From the UHGV virus genome UHGV-0127207: a stretch of DNA of 24,457 nt; one strand, written 5' to 3'. Below, piece after piece: positions 12,962 through 24,457 of the stretch (position 1 is its first letter; each line of letters opens with the position of its first letter). A model generated the notes under the pieces. The model worked only from the letters and a program-made list of their open reading frames with translations. It ran no database searches and was not told where the DNA came from. The translations under genes and the position numbers were made by a program. The DNA is from a virus.

Positions 12962-12982
12962 AAAACGCTCCTAAGAGCGTTT
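12962..12982. terminator. Candidate bidirectional hairpin terminator between convergent Q and the accessory operon
   Basis: AAACGCTC-CTAA-GAGCGTTT inverted repeat with T-rich stretches on both strands; the stop codon of the 239-aa gene lies in the loop. Confidence 0.35.
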
Positions 12983-13690
12983 CTGTTTACGGTTTGACTC
13001 TATTTGTTTTTTTAGCTGGATAAGCCTTTCAACTAACTCAAACACTTTTGTACTTGGATTATCAGTATCGCTAGCTTCAGCAGCCTGTAAACTTCTCTTA
13101 GCCCTAAGGACTACTTCATTTAAATCTTTTGACTCTAAAGCGTTTAGGGTTTTCTGAAAAATCCCTTTTGAGCCTTTCTCATAGTCCTTAATATATTTTC
13201 TTAACTCATTTACAATTTGATTTCCTGAACTATTACCAGGTAAATTTCTAAATGCCTTTGTCGAATAGGTATAATGTAGAAGTAACCAATATTCAAAACA
13301 AGGTACTGAATTCACAGTAAACCAAGTTGAGCTTGGTTTACTTCTCCTGATAGCGTCAAGCGCTGCCATGTAATCAGAGTGGGCATCCTTATCAATCACT
13401 ACAAAGATTTGATCATAAGGAGCCCCCTGTTCAGTCATTTTTTTATGCTGTGCTTTTGCATGACGAACAACACACATAGGACTAGAGCCACATTCTCCAG
13501 TTACATCAATTACACTTGCTGTAAGTAATTCAAAATGATTTATCAAATCCTCAAAGTAATTTGGTTCAGTTTTTTTACCCTCACAAACAATTAATATTTT
13601 AGCGAGAGGGGATTTTATTGCATTACGTCTTGCTAGATCCTTAGCCGTTTTAGGGGCACGTTTCTTTTTGAATAAATCCTCGCTTCCCAT
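12971..13690 (-). CDS. TOPRIM-like protein (RloB/AbiLii-type or DUF4435/AriB-type), second gene of a candidate anti-phage pair
   Basis: 239 aa; N-terminal ILIVCEGKKTEPNYF and downstream VVIDKDAHSD consistent with a TOPRIM E...DxD core; A+T-rich; starts 1 nt after the upstream ATPase gene stops. Confidence 0.6.
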   Translation of the reverse strand: MGSEDLFKKKRAPKTAKDLARRNAIKSPLAKILIVCEGKKTEPNYFEDLINHFELLTASVIDVTGECGSSPMCVVRHAKAQHKKMTEQGAPYDQIFVVIDKDAHSDYMAALDAIRRSKPSSTWFTVNSVPCFEYWLLLHYTYSTKAFRNLPGNSSGNQIVNELRKYIKDYEKGSKGIFQKTLNALESKDLNEVVLRAKRSLQAAEASDTDNPSTKVFELVERLIQLKKQIESNRKQKRS

Positions 13691-13691
13691 A

Positions 13692-14957
13692 TCAAATCCC
13701 CGTCAATTTCTTGATGAACGGCAATGCTCCATACCGACCGTCTAGGTATGCGGCTTCTAAATTTTCTCTTCCTTTCCTTGGACTAAAATCAGTCAATGGA
13801 TATAGATTAGTTTCACTGAGTTCATTTTTCTCACAAAACCAAACTTGATCACGTCTAAAAATGCTTTGATTCAGAATGGATGTTTCATGTGTTGAGAAAA
13901 TTAACTGCGCACCTTTTTTATTAGTAACCGGACTATTAAAAAGATTTACCAAGAAACTAACCAACTTTGGATGCAATGTATCGTGAAGCTCGTCGATTAA
14001 TAGTACATATCCATTATCGAGCGCATCTAACCATGGACCAGCTAAAGAAAAAAGCTTTTGAGTGCCATGAGATTCCTCTTCAAGAGAAAAACTTACCGGC
14101 TCACCTTTATCGTTATAATGGACAGTAGTAACATCAAAAACTTCTTTATCCTTCATATTAGAAATAACGATTTTTTTGATATCATCTGGCATATCAGATG
14201 GCAAATCATCTGGATTAAATTTTTCTTTCTTAACTAAAACATCATCAATGCCAATATCTGCAGCTTGCAAAAAATTCAAGATATCTTTCTTCATATCCTC
14301 GGTGCAGCGTTTAGCGGAGAATGTATTAGCCCATCCATTAATTCCAGAAAGTCTCAGTGTTTTTTTAAACCAAGTAAAAACAGGCTTAAGCTGCTCGCTA
14401 TTTAATTGAACAGCTGTAGACAAGAACAGGGCATTATTTCTAGTTGAACGCTGCCAAACTTGTTTTTCACCAAGTAGTGATGCGCCAAAATCCCAATCAT
14501 ATTCCTGCTTCTCTTCATCCCAAGCTCTGAAATACCACTTTTGAGGCCTTCCTTTTGGGTACGCAAAGAGCCATTCATCAATAATTCTTTCATTTGTAGC
14601 AGAAAAACCAAATTGATACCGGGTGCCCTCTGCAATAAAAGTAACTTCAAATTCAGTAGGTTTTTTAATTGAATCTGAATCAAGCTTGAAGGGGAATACG
14701 GGAACCTCTTCACCAGCCTGAGAGTTAGATGCAGAGTGGATAACTAAATCCATCATAGCCCTGACAGCCAGAAGTACATTCGACTTGCCCGCTGCATTCG
14801 CACCGTAAATAACAGCTGACTTTAGAACATTAAGGTTAACGTTTCCCTCTACTGTAAAGATATTCTCTTTTAACTCGTTACTTTTGTTAGCAATAAGTGA
14901 AAGTGTTTGTTTGTTTTTGATTGAGAGATAGTTCTCAACATTGAATTCAATAAGCAT
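13692..14957 (-). CDS. ABC/SMC-like P-loop ATPase (AAA_15/AAA_21-type), first gene of a candidate anti-phage pair
   Basis: 421 aa; Walker A GANAAGKSN, Walker B VLLIDELHD, H-loop-like FSTHET; strong RBS AGGAGGG before the ATG; A+T-rich. Confidence 0.7.
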   Translation of the reverse strand: MLIEFNVENYLSIKNKQTLSLIANKSNELKENIFTVEGNVNLNVLKSAVIYGANAAGKSNVLLAVRAMMDLVIHSASNSQAGEEVPVFPFKLDSDSIKKPTEFEVTFIAEGTRYQFGFSATNERIIDEWLFAYPKGRPQKWYFRAWDEEKQEYDWDFGASLLGEKQVWQRSTRNNALFLSTAVQLNSEQLKPVFTWFKKTLRLSGINGWANTFSAKRCTEDMKKDILNFLQAADIGIDDVLVKKEKFNPDDLPSDMPDDIKKIVISNMKDKEVFDVTTVHYNDKGEPVSFSLEEESHGTQKLFSLAGPWLDALDNGYVLLIDELHDTLHPKLVSFLVNLFNSPVTNKKGAQLIFSTHETSILNQSIFRRDQVWFCEKNELSETNLYPLTDFSPRKGRENLEAAYLDGRYGALPFIKKLTGI

Positions 14958-16061: not shown

Positions 16062-16295
16062 TTAATGCAGCCAGCTGTCGTCCTCCCACACCTTCTGCAT
16101 AATTTTCATCACTTGTTTTCTTTCTTCATCCAGTTGCAGTCCGGTTAGTTCCACACCGTTAGAGCTACCTTTGCGAATGCGAATTACCGTTTTGGGATAC
16201 AGGGGGCGCAGATTGCGGTAAAGCTCGGATTCAAGGGCGTCCAGGGTAGACTGGCTAATCTTCTGCTCTTTATCGATCATTATTTCAATGCGCAT
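16062..16295 (-). CDS. dinI: DinI-family protein (DNA damage-inducible protein I homologue)
   Basis: ORF 16062..16367; ATG at 16295 preceded by GAGGTGA gives 77 aa MRIEIMIDKEQKISQSTLDALESELYRNLRPLYPKTVIRIRKGSSNGVELTGLQLDEERKQVMKIMQKVWEDDSWLH, alignable to E. coli DinI (MRIEVTIAK...ELSRR...ETWESADDWF). Confidence 0.8.
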   Translation of the reverse strand: MRIEIMIDKEQKISQSTLDALESELYRNLRPLYPKTVIRIRKGSSNGVELTGLQLDEERKQVMKIMQKVWEDDSWLH

Positions 16296-16305
16296 AAAAG
16301 TCACC

Positions 16306-16494
16306 TCAGCTGATGACATCCATTGAGCGGTTGTATTCGTGGCTTCTGATTTTTGCCATGAGTTCATCAGTCAATTCAGAAACCCACTGCAGAGCCAGCC
16401 CCTTCTCTTCATCACTACACTCACTAGCCGCTACAAGCTTAAGAAAAAAATCAATGCGCTGGAGCTTCAAAGACTCCAAAAAATAGTCCTGCAT
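16306..16494 (-). CDS. Small SOS-controlled protein, candidate antirepressor (Tum-like role)
   Basis: 62 aa; strong RBS AGGAGG; first gene after the LexA box and directly upstream of dinI; functional assignment is inference from context only. Confidence 0.45.
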   Translation of the reverse strand: MQDYFLESLKLQRIDFFLKLVAASECSDEEKGLALQWVSELTDELMAKIRSHEYNRSMDVIS

Positions 16495-21776: not shown

Positions 21777-21980
21777 TTAAGCAGACAAAGCATCAACAGT
21801 CAGAGCAGCCAGGTTAATCATTACCTTTTCACGTTTTTTGTCTTTACGAAGACGATGACGAGGTAGTCGGCCATCAGCCAACATGTCGTTAATCGTATCA
21901 ATAGAAAGGCCAGTCAGTTCGCTATAACGTTCGATTGTGACATGTGGTGTATTCAGAGTAATTGAAATGTTAGGTGTCAT
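21777..21980 (-). CDS. Apl/Cox-like excisionase and transcriptional regulator (small HTH protein)
   Basis: 67 aa; HTH-like segment [27 protein letters not shown]; first gene of the lytic-side operon, divergent from cI; RBS AAGGA. Confidence 0.7.
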
Positions 21981-22045
21981 AAGGCAACATTCCTTCTAGA
22001 TATGGCTTGTGGCGAGCCGTTGTTTGTCGTGATTAGTAGTGAAGG

Positions 22046-22119
22046 CTCCAAAAGAACACTTCTGGTTCAACTTTAAGATCGCTTTTGGAATCTGTCAACG
22101 AATTTTGGATTTCTTTGGA
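22046..22119. promoter_or_regulatory. Immunity switch region with repeated TTTTGGA-type motifs (candidate CI operators, convergent pR/pL arrangement)
   Basis: CCAAAAG at 22047-22053 inverted relative to CTTTTGG at 22082-22088; direct copies (T/C)TTTGGA at 22083, 22103 and 22113; lies between the divergent apl and cI genes. Confidence 0.4.
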
Positions 22120-22125
22120 GGACTT

Positions 22126-22695
22126 GTGGATTTCAATAGCGGCGGTAAGAAAGCCATAGAACGTTTAGTTGAAGCATATGGGTTCGGTACCCGTCAGGCT
22201 CTCTGTGATCATTTAGGTGTTTCTAAGAGCACCATGGCAACGCGCTATATGCGTGATATTTTTCCAGCAGATTGGGTAATCCAGTGCGCCCTTGAAACGG
22301 GCACCTCGCTTAATTGGCTAACAACAGGGCATGGTTCAAAGCAAGCATCAGCAAATACAAATACTATAGAAGTAGAAAAATATTTATTGTCTGATGGAGC
22401 ATTGCAGAAAGACGGTTTTTATATTTTTGATAAGGGATTTCTACCCTCTACGTTTAAAAAACCTTTTGTCATCACAGATAACAATTCTGAATTTATTTGT
22501 GATAAAGAATTTGATGATATACGTGATGGTAAATGGGTAATAAGTATTGATGGCGAAATAACGATCCGTGACATTACTCGTTTACCCGGTGGAAGAATCT
22601 TCGTCGAGGGTGGAAACAGAGCCTTCGAATGCAAGATAGAAGACATTGAAATAATTGGTAAAATTATAAGTTTAACAGTCAAGTATGTTAAATAG
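22126..22695 (+). CDS. cI: CI immunity repressor (186-type, N-terminal HTH)
   Basis: ORF 22039..22695; GTG at 22126 preceded by GGAGGA gives about 189 aa; HTH region GTRQALCDHLGVSKSTMATRYMRD; start uncertain (SD spacing short). Confidence 0.75.
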   Translation: MDFNSGGKKAIERLVEAYGFGTRQALCDHLGVSKSTMATRYMRDIFPADWVIQCALETGTSLNWLTTGHGSKQASANTNTIEVEKYLLSDGALQKDGFYIFDKGFLPSTFKKPFVITDNNSEFICDKEFDDIRDGKWVISIDGEITIRDITRLPGGRIFVEGGNRAFECKIEDIEIIGKIISLTVKYVK

Positions 22696-22710: not shown

Positions 22711-22902
22711 ATGCTTGGTAAGGTATTTTTTGTGGTTTTGTCATGTTCTTTGTTATTAAACCCACTAACTACCTATGCTAGAAATTATCCCTGCTCAGGG
22801 AAAAAGGGAGGTGTTTCTCACTGTACCTCAGATGGCAAATTCGTTTGCAATGATGGAACTATTAGTAAATCCAAAAAAATCTGTACTAAAAACTCACGAT
22901 AA
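22711..22902 (+). CDS. Small secreted cysteine-rich protein (moron in the cI-int operon)
   Basis: 63 aa; strong RBS GGGAGGAAACT-ATG; N-terminal signal peptide [23 protein letters not shown]; mature part basic with four Cys; A+T-rich. Confidence 0.55.
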
Positions 22903-23090: not shown

Positions 23091-24143
23091 ATGGCAGTAC
23101 GAAAACTCACCACAGGGAAATGGCTTTGCGAATGTTACCCCGCCGGACGTAGTGGGCGTCGTGTGCGTAAACAATTCGCCACCAAAGGCGAAGCTCTGGC
23201 TTTTGAGCGCCACACGATGGAAGAAACCGAAGCAAAGCCCTGGCTGGGTGAATCAGTGGATCGTCGAACACTGAAAGACGTAGTTGAGCTATGGTTCAAA
23301 CTACATGGTAAATCTCTGACAGCTGGGCAGCATGTCTATGACAAATTGCTGTTGATGGTTGACGCTCTGGGTAATCCTCTTGCAACCGATCTCACCTCTA
23401 AAATGTTTGCCCACTATCGAGATAAACGCCTGACAGGCGAGATCTACTTCAGCGAGAAATGGAAGAAAGGAGCAAGCCCGGTCACCATTAACCTGGAGCA
23501 AAGCTATCTAAGTAGTGTTTTTAGCGAACTATCCCGTCTGGGCGAATGGTCGTATCCGAACCCACTGGAGAACATGCGAAAATTCACCATCGCAGAAAAA
23601 GAGATGGCATGGCTTACCCATGAGCAGATTGTTGAATTGCTGGCTGATTGCAAACGTCAGGACCCAATTCTGGCACTGGTAGTTAAGATATGCTTAAGCA
23701 CAGGCGCACGCTGGCGTGAAGCCGTAAATCTTACCCGCTCACAGGTGACCAAATACCGAATTACCTTTGTCAGAACGAAGGGGAAGAAAAACAGAAGCAT
23801 CCCTATCAGTAAAGAGCTTTACGAAGAGATCATGGCGCTTGATGGGTTCAATTTCTTTACAGACTACTATTTTCAATTTTTATCCGTGATGGAAAAAACG
23901 TCTATCGTGCTCCCTCGCGGTCAACTCACACACGTTCTGCGCCATACGTTTGCGGCGCACTTCATGATGTCGGGTGGAAACATTCTCGCCTTACAAAAAA
24001 TTCTCGGACACCACGATATAAAAATGACTATGCGTTACGCACATCTGGCACCAGATCATCTGGAAACGGCGCTCCGTTTCAATCCTCTGGCAACGCTGCC
24101 AAGTGGCGACAAAGTGGCGGCAGCGGTTGGCATTACCCCGTAA
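23091..24143 (+). CDS. int: Tyrosine integrase (P2/186 family)
   Basis: ORF 22935..24143; ATG at 23091 (MAVRKLTTGKWLCECYPAGR...) taken as start; C-terminal catalytic region HVLRHTFAAHFMMSGGNILALQKILGHHDIKMTMRYAHLAPDHL with catalytic Tyr in MRYAHL. Confidence 0.9.
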   Translation: MAVRKLTTGKWLCECYPAGRSGRRVRKQFATKGEALAFERHTMEETEAKPWLGESVDRRTLKDVVELWFKLHGKSLTAGQHVYDKLLLMVDALGNPLATDLTSKMFAHYRDKRLTGEIYFSEKWKKGASPVTINLEQSYLSSVFSELSRLGEWSYPNPLENMRKFTIAEKEMAWLTHEQIVELLADCKRQDPILALVVKICLSTGARWREAVNLTRSQVTKYRITFVRTKGKKNRSIPISKELYEEIMALDGFNFFTDYYFQFLSVMEKTSIVLPRGQLTHVLRHTFAAHFMMSGGNILALQKILGHHDIKMTMRYAHLAPDHLETALRFNPLATLPSGDKVAAAVGITP

Positions 24144-24166
24144 TAACCACCACTGACCACCAACCC

Positions 24167-24198
24167 AACTTATTGTTTTTAATCTAACTTATTGTTTT
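24167..24198 (+). repeat. Direct repeats AACTTATTGTTTT x2 just after int (candidate Int arm-type or att-associated sites)
   Basis: Identical 13-mers at 24167-24179 and 24186-24198, separated by 6 bp. Confidence 0.5.
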
Positions 24199-24202
24199 CA
24201 TT

Positions 24203-24228
24203 AACCCGTTTACATAAATGGGTTTTTT
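24203..24228 (+). terminator. Rho-independent terminator-like hairpin downstream of int
   Basis: AACCCGTTTA-CA-TAAATGGGTT stem (one G-T wobble) followed by TTTTTT. Confidence 0.5.
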
Positions 24229-24457
24229 GTTATCTAAAACTTATCTACTACCCTGCAACCCTCTCAACCATCCTCAAAATCTCCTCGCGCGATAGCGGCT
24301 TACGGTCGGTGACAAAATGCAGCGTCATCCCCTCAATAAACGCATCAAGCGCGCGGGCGGTTCCGGGTTCAAACCATTGTTCGAGCGTTTGCTGACTGCG
24401 CTGCACTGAGAGATCCCCTCATAATTTCCCCAAAACGTAACCATGTGTGAATAGATT

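Follow-up and report, generated by a model that had tools for sequence, protein, structure and literature searches.

Gene content of the prophage

The window, by which we mean the entire 24,457-nucleotide stretch of DNA that was analyzed, is a P2/186-like (Peduoviridae) prophage whose genes run in the opposite direction to the P2 map. Among them are the genes for capsid and terminase, one for replication, a 186-type cI gene whose product has Phage_CI_repr and Phage_CI_C domains (Pfam), a gene for a 67-aa Cox-like protein, and int (Table 1). The int product contains Int_N (3e-32) and Phage_integrase (5e-22) domains (Pfam); it shares 56% identity with phage 186 Int over 334 aa (E = 7e-138) and 99–100% with the integrases of Escherichia phage vB_EcoM-813R9 and of relatives of Klebsiella phage 4LV2017. 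The region described below thus adjoins the gene of a tyrosine integrase that has both an N-terminal arm-binding part and a catalytic domain, as other 186/HP1-type Peduoviridae att sites do.

Table 1. Features of the int-proximal prophage end and related genes, in window coordinates
Feature	Position	Strand	Description
RDF candidate, 67-aa Cox-like protein	21777-21980	-	Cox-like
int	23091-24143	+	350-aa tyrosine integrase, 186/HP1 type
Putative Int arm-type sites of the P' arm, AAGTGGCGACA + AAGTGGCGGCA	24101-24122	+	Tandem, 11 bp apart, over the last int codons
Possible third arm-type repeat, GCGGTTGGCAT	24123-24133	+	Degenerate; in 11-bp register with the pair
CCAC(C/T) pair, ACCACCActgACCACCAa	24148-24165	+	About 11 bp apart; conserved block CaCt.cT.AcCAC in the family alignment
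Accessory site 1, CAACTTATTGTTT	24166-24178	+	IHF-consensus-like; holds the first 13-mer
Accessory site 2, TAACTTATTGTTT	24185-24197	+	IHF-consensus-like; holds the second 13-mer
Hairpin (24203-24224) and T-tract	24203-24230	+	Probable intrinsic terminator of the cI-int operon; 3' arm and T-tract within the core
att common core, ATGGGTTTTTTGTT	24218-24231		14 bp common to attB, attL, and attR
Host chromosome	24232-24405	-	16-bp spacer, then the rcdA (ybjK) 3' end; stop codon 24248-24250
IS10/ISVsa5-like element terminus	24406-24457		52 bp; interrupts rcdA

Neither the Cox-like protein nor a 63-aa ORF between cI and int (22711-22902, plus strand) was assigned to a Pfam family. The 63-aa ORF has a signal-peptide-like N terminus and several cysteines, and its slot is filled by a 1.7-kb ATPase gene in vB_EcoM-813R9; it is therefore, apparently, a cargo hotspot. 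Next to the portal gene, where P2 has old/tin, lies an AbiL-like two-gene anti-phage defense cargo (12971-14957, minus strand) encoding a 421-aa AAA_21 ATPase (PADLOC AbiLi, 1e-100) and a 239-aa RloB-like protein (PADLOC AbiLii, 2e-29). A 101-aa DinI-like protein (16062-16367, minus strand) is encoded next to the replication gene and is called an SOS induction modulator in related phage records, which suggests an SOS-inducible 186-type prophage. Directly upstream of the Cox-like gene is an inverted repeat, GGCTTGTGGYGAGCC (22005-22020), that is kept in relatives with differing cI (L088-L104); it is a candidate regulatory site.

The prophage end lies between ybjL and rcdA

Positions 24144-24457, which begin directly after int, were compared by megablast with 5,426 complete E. 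coli genomes, and 5,423 of them matched. In prophage-free genomes, the match is confined to 24218 (query position 75) through 24405, and the feature beneath it is rcdA; 1,098 of the 5,426 match from the first base onward and therefore carry the same prophage junction. A three-way comparison was made with an empty site (strain 41, locus L001), in which ybjL and rcdA are convergent, and with both ends of a complete prophage (strain ECONIH4, locus L002), where 35 kb separate ybjL from rcdA. The attB of strain 41 reads ...GGTTGATGGGTTTTTTGTTATCTAAAAC..., the ogr-side junction of ECONIH4 ...GGTTGATGGGTTTTTTGTTGCCTGAAAT..., and the int-side junction of the window ...CATAAATGGGTTTTTTGTTATCTAAAAC.... 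Exactly 14 bp, ATGGGTTTTTTGTT, are common to the unoccupied attB, both ECONIH4 junctions, and the window. Phage DNA lies to the left of ATGGGTTTTTTGTT and host DNA to the right, so strand exchange must fall within it. This alignment identifies the region as attL, where the int end of a 186-type Peduoviridae prophage integrated between ybjL and rcdA meets the host chromosome. The GenBank record of 4LV2017 annotates attL and attR over the same core bases, extended to 19–20 bp, and in an IMG/VR viral contig (L077) the int arm continues through the core into the ogr arm, an arrangement that represents attP in another copy.

The initial annotation of this DNA had placed the prophage end directly after int and the other end outside the window, both of which hold. 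It had expected the core a further 100–300 bp on and had found no core repeat that could be identified within the window; comparison with empty and occupied sites instead puts the core inside the very hairpin and T-tract that it had recorded. The comparison with an uninfected chromosome that it proposed gives this position from E. coli strain 41, and the matching core repeat to be sought at the other prophage end is present at the ogr-side junction of ECONIH4. A junction further to the right, with additional phage genes past 24457, was named there as the finding that would speak against such a boundary; the window instead passes into host DNA and then into an insertion sequence.

As the initial annotation had also observed, the window holds no tRNA: ARAGORN, run on the whole window, detected no tRNA and no tmRNA. 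None is expected at this junction, because the integrase targets the ybjL terminator, and a tRNA was rejected as the integration target. Homologs of rcdA and ybjJ flank the int side in most of the Enterobacteriaceae genera that carry the integrase, and the target locus is thus a conserved one. Within E. coli, the sequence of the empty attB varies (L001 positions 1495-1530 compared with O157:H7 genomes, hits H126-H137). The K-12-type attB, GTTATCTAAAACTTAT, has 14 bp of identity to attP, and the host of the window is of this type; the O157:H7-type empty attB, GTTGCCTGAAATTTAT, has 27 bp and was found in approximately 400 records at 99% identity or higher.

This integration locus is already in the literature, and the prophage end is an ordinary one. 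NC-MV of E. coli NC101 is integrated between ybjL and rcdA (PMC12803456), and a P2-like phage of E. coli HS, reported to be inducible, is flanked by rcdA and ogr, which implies the ybjL/rcdA location (bioRxiv 10.1101/2024.06.12.598711); our likening of the window to these two prophages concerns their reported location on the rcdA flank alone. This is a textbook prophage junction, present in about one-fifth of complete E. coli genomes, and little is at stake biologically. What is gained is an annotation exact to the base for the core, the arm sites, the first host nucleotide, and the disrupted rcdA (Table 1).

The adjoining host gene is interrupted by an insertion sequence

The assignment of the host segment to rcdA is given concordantly by the feature beneath the megablast matches and by the annotation of both reference loci (L001 and L002). 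The initial annotation had expected the first host gene within approximately 100–300 bp; rcdA ends at 24248, well inside the window. Identity to intact rcdA ends after 24405, and the remainder matches IS4-like ISVsa5 elements (hits H19 and H20), with the transposase-stop-proximal end of an IS10/ISVsa5-like element beginning at 24406. Since the sequence leaves intact rcdA for this element, the gene is disrupted in the strain from which the window derives. The combination of an IS-interrupted rcdA with the prophage junction occurred in none of the 5,426 complete E. coli genomes (RefSeq). The product of rcdA (ybjK) is a TetR-type regulator of csgD. A third AACTTAT, at 24238-24244, was considered as an element of the phage arm and rejected; it is host DNA, within a stretch of partial attB/attP similarity.

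The core forms half of a probable terminator in phage and host

The hairpin downstream of int was picked out by a terminator pattern scan, and its predicted RNA fold has an energy of -9.0 kcal/mol (z = -3.0 compared with shuffled sequences). It consists of nine pairs, one of them G.U, closed by a 4-nt loop and followed by TTTTTTGTT, so that a 9-bp stem and T6 stand 60 nt past the int stop codon on the same strand. These features bear out the hairpin with a T-tract described after the repeats in the initial annotation and make its proposal of an int terminator plausible; we infer that transcription of the lysogenic cI-int operon probably terminates here. The stem is weak, with only three G-C pairs. 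Within the integrase's own clade the hairpin is nearly invariant, and a G/A variation at 24208 preserves pairing (G.U or A-U), but it is missing from Serratia and Yersinia relatives, which retain the core alone. Given the weak stem and this absence, conservation of the hairpin could reflect, perhaps in part, core-type binding by Int instead of termination.

In the empty site, the 14 bp of the core make up the 3' arm and T-tract of a strong terminator after ybjL (-24 kcal/mol), and this fold survives at the ogr-side junction (-23 kcal/mol). At the int end the 5' arm of the hairpin comes from the phage, so that a hairpin and T-tract follow the int stop by 60 nt in attP as well as in attL. The core thus serves as 3' half to two structures, the ybjL terminator in attB and the phage hairpin in attP, and integration would leave a complete terminator at both junctions.

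Int arm-type sites match the family consensus on both arms

The tandem pair AAGTGGCGACA/AAGTGGCGGCA was recovered as a repeat family (D3). The arm-site consensus of 186-type integrases is tgccGCCActt (Nilsson et al., PMC3448106), and the GenBank record of phage 186 (NC_001317) gives an arm consensus of YAYCGCCAYTY, with three sites on one arm and two on the other. AAGTGGCGGCA is the exact reverse complement of tgccGCCActt, and both members of the pair fit YAYCGCCAYTY, as the reverse complement, at all but one position. A 21-mer of the pair, GGCGACAAARTGGCGGCAGCG, also occurs on the ogr-side arm (L002 6035-6055), where, as in 186, an inverted copy lies close by. Sequences matching the arm-type consensus are therefore established on both the int side and the ogr side.

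The last approximately 14 codons of int in the window (24101-24143) overlie the arm-type sites. In relatives with cargo between int and att (loci L090, L097-L101, L104, and L131), Int stops at approximately residue 336–340 and the arm pair is kept unchanged as non-coding DNA at an equal distance from the core. Retention of the pair where it is non-coding indicates a DNA-level element rather than a by-product of the coding sequence. GCGGTTGGCAT may be a third arm-type repeat: it is nearly invariant over 21 non-redundant relatives, including the non-coding cases, and phage 186 shows a triple repeat in that register. Between the arm sites and the 13-mers, the CCAC(C/T) pair falls in the interval that holds the Apl sites of phage 186 and, by this analogy, is a speculative candidate for an excisionase (RDF) site; a search of the switch region for a motif of this type gave no match.

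A pair of 13-mers keeps a fixed position in the int-side arm

The 13-mer AACTTATTGTTTT is present exactly twice (24167-24179 and 24186-24198, plus strand), as the initial annotation had stated for 24167-24198. At 89% identity the repeat can be widened to 18 nt (24162-24179 and 24181-24198), and its copies start 19 bp apart. It is the sole exact direct repeat of at least 13 nt within 60 bp in the 24.5-kb window, and no such repeat arose in 40 first-order Markov simulations; the repeat and the hairpin are real and not products of chance. Looser copies of AACTTATTGTTTT elsewhere in the window (three or fewer mismatches) are at chance level, with nine found against 8.2 expected.

Int-side arms were collected from 77 genome loci across GTDB species and from phage and IMG/VR records. 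The own clade comprised 26 arms from many genera with 70–100% Int identity, and a distant set comprised 31 arms whose Int was 50–57% identical. The own-clade layout is rigid: with the second arm-type site at 0, site 1 lies at +54, site 2 at +73, and the GGG of the core at +108. Of the 26 own-clade arms, 21 have site 1 at +54 and 24 have site 2 at +73, 35 bp ahead of the GGG of the core; of the 31 distant arms, 23 have site 1 at +52 to +54 and 14 have site 2 at +72 or +73. The distant arms have other cores (the ssrA 3' end, tRNA-Ile, or other terminators), and their RDFs are Apl-type or undetected. The position of the two elements is thereby established across the family, and this rigid arrangement of arm sites, two IHF-like sites, and core could serve automatic att finding in 186-type prophages. 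The own-clade consensus is cTAAcTtATTGAtt for site 1 and cAAgTcaTTGTTTT for site 2. Perfect identity of the two copies over 13 nt sets the window apart from most relatives, in which 3–5 positions differ.

The 13-mers resemble IHF sites

The IHF consensus WATCAANNNNTTR (WATCAR form) was scored as its reverse complement, YAANNNNTTGATW, over nine positions. Both window copies match at 8 of 9 positions with a T/A-rich flank, and site 1 reaches 9 of 9 in most relatives (TAACTTATTGATT). Matches of at least 8/9 are concentrated at the site 1 and site 2 offsets, both in the own clade (45 of 47) and in the distant arms (37 of 38 in the 150 bp that follow the arm pair). In these sites YAA and TG hardly change at all, and the first T of TTG alternates between T and C, like the WATCAR form; variation is free at N1 and N3, N2 is T in nearly all cases, and N4 is mostly A. 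The sites follow neither core nor RDF type and are constant across hosts, which points to a shared host factor, with IHF as the obvious candidate. The phage 186 record (NC_001317) also annotates an IHF DNase I footprint, which spans +50 to +79 when counted in this frame.

Several features of the elements fit IHF less well. They deviate systematically at one consensus position, with TTGTTT instead of TTGATT, and the near-constant T at the second N leaves the motif less freedom than IHF sites in general have. At a spacing of 19 bp, two bound IHF molecules would clash sterically, and simultaneous occupancy in the usual way is therefore impossible. The annotated 186 footprint has no good consensus between +50 and +79, and it only partially overlaps, or only abuts, the 186 element that aligns with site 2; a specific consensus element was therefore rejected as the basis of the footprint, which serves as positional support only.

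Other readings of the repeat

The initial annotation had taken the 13-mers for Int arm-type sites. Direct repeats that adjoin int and keep a constant spacing to the core would suit such a role, perhaps as a second class of site for the integrase N-terminal domain, which is conserved within the 186-type family (PMC3448106), and the 13-mers track the integrase family and not the core or RDF, as an element recognized by Int would. The family consensus (tgccGCCActt/YAYCGCCAYTY) is nevertheless satisfied by the upstream pair at 24101-24122 and is unrelated to the 13-mers: AACTTATTGTTTT is unlike AAGTGGCGGCA, and it is missing from the ogr-side arm, whereas the true arm pair is on both arms. Reading of two unrelated motifs by one small N-terminal domain would also be without precedent in the family, and we regard this assignment as very unlikely. 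We give even less credence to a repeat with no binding function, produced by recent local duplication or homogenization in an AT-rich spacer beside a hairpin that is merely a terminator. The copies are identical over 13 nt here and differ at 3–5 positions in most relatives, so some recent homogenization has occurred, but position, spacing, and the YAA...YTG skeleton are kept down to 50% Int identity in many genera while the flanks diverge.

More weight attaches to the excisionase, although we still consider it an unlikely occupant. In lambda, the Xis sites X1 and X2 are two 13-bp direct repeats with 7 bp between them, about two helical turns apart, and they bend the arm for excision; the 67-aa Cox-like protein could act on the 13-mers in a similar way. 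As tandem direct repeats between core and arm sites on the int-proximal arm, they lie where P2 Cox and 186 Apl bind (PMC7498355; for Apl also NC_001317). RDF and Int are co-inherited in every close relative, so linkage cannot tell against the excisionase: all 80 IMG/VR loci with the Cox-like RDF have the same Int clade, in a sample in which most contigs end at the int stop codon. Several Klebsiella phage records end before int. Against the excisionase, the motif sits at the same offsets in attP arms of family members whose RDF is not Cox-like but Apl-type (approximately 30% identical to 186 Apl) or undetectable. The mapped Apl operators of phage 186 are a different, 6-bp motif at 10–11 bp spacing, and the 19-bp spacing found here is not one helical turn. 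P2-family RDFs reuse their recognition sequence in the lysis-lysogeny switch (PMC7498355), but the switch region of the window (21981-22126) has no copy of the motif, and it is likewise missing from those parts of the switch that are conserved across immunity types. Alignment of the switch from relatives with the same RDF and a different cI showed conservation of GGCTTGTGGYGAGCC near the RDF start and nothing resembling the 13-mer; a search by k-mer sharing for an operator common to switch and att arm, in the phage of the window and in ESSI2_ev129, returned only trivial 4–5-mers. In spacing, in reuse at the switch, and in co-variation with RDF type, the 13-mers thus behave unlike an RDF operator array.

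The paired elements, YAAsTnaYTG(T/A)TTT at +54 and +73 whatever the core or excisionase, might instead constitute a conserved module that is as yet undescribed, which we think doubtful. One possibility is that IHF can occupy either position but not both, which would give the arm one geometry for integration and a different one for excision; alternatively, the elements could be a second motif that the integrase itself reads.

On the consensus match and the offsets, the protein most likely to bind the 13-mers is IHF. The complete reading, in which an attL with arm sites has 13-mers bound by probable IHF and strand exchange within a 14-bp core, is one that we hold to be reasonably probable. Rightward along the P' arm, the order would be two or three arm-type sites (AAGTGGCGRCA, 24101-24133), the CCAC block, the two IHF-like elements, and the hairpin and core. 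The Int N-terminal domain would bind the arm-type sites while its other domains, core-binding and catalytic, engage the core, and a DNA-bending protein at the 13-mers, likeliest host IHF, would fold the arm so that one Int bridges arm and core. Strand exchange would occur inside ATGGGTTTTTTGTT, where we infer the exact cleavage points to lie.

Comparison with related att sites

Phage 186 (Eganvirus, NC_001317) resembles the window in several respects. Both arms carry tandem, 11-bp-spaced repeats of one consensus, the B/ogr side has two direct arm-site copies and one inverted copy, and the int-side order is core, accessory-factor sites, arm sites, and int, with approximately 100–118 bp from arm to core. 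A terminator-like hairpin is followed by TTTTTGTTGCCT in both. In 186, by contrast, the target is the 3' end of tRNA-Ile (ileY) and the common sequence has 36 bp, whereas here the core is a 14-bp terminator tail between ybjL and rcdA; the lysogenic-operon terminator of 186 lies beyond the core instead of overlapping it; the RDF of 186 is Apl, to which the 67-aa Cox-like protein appears unrelated; and 186 has a single 13-mer-like element, at +74.

The P' arm of lambda attP is arranged for a heterobivalent integrase, with distal arm-type repeats (P'1-3) and, between these and the core, the H' IHF site, which bends the arm to the core. The window, as judged from its letters, would share the logic of an IHF-consensus site between core and distal arm repeats. 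It differs in having two consensus-like elements 19 bp apart where lambda has one IHF site, and in integrase lineage and arm consensus.

Phages 4LV2017 (Elveevirus) and vB_EcoM-813R9 share with the window an integrase at 99% amino acid identity, the arm including both 13-mers, and the core. Cargo genes differ within this group, and the window copy stands apart in that its neighbor rcdA is broken by the IS10-like element. In Klebsiella, the host of 4LV2017, identity of attB reaches 19 bp, ATGGGTTTTTTGTTGCCTG, compared with 14 bp in the E. coli host of the window.
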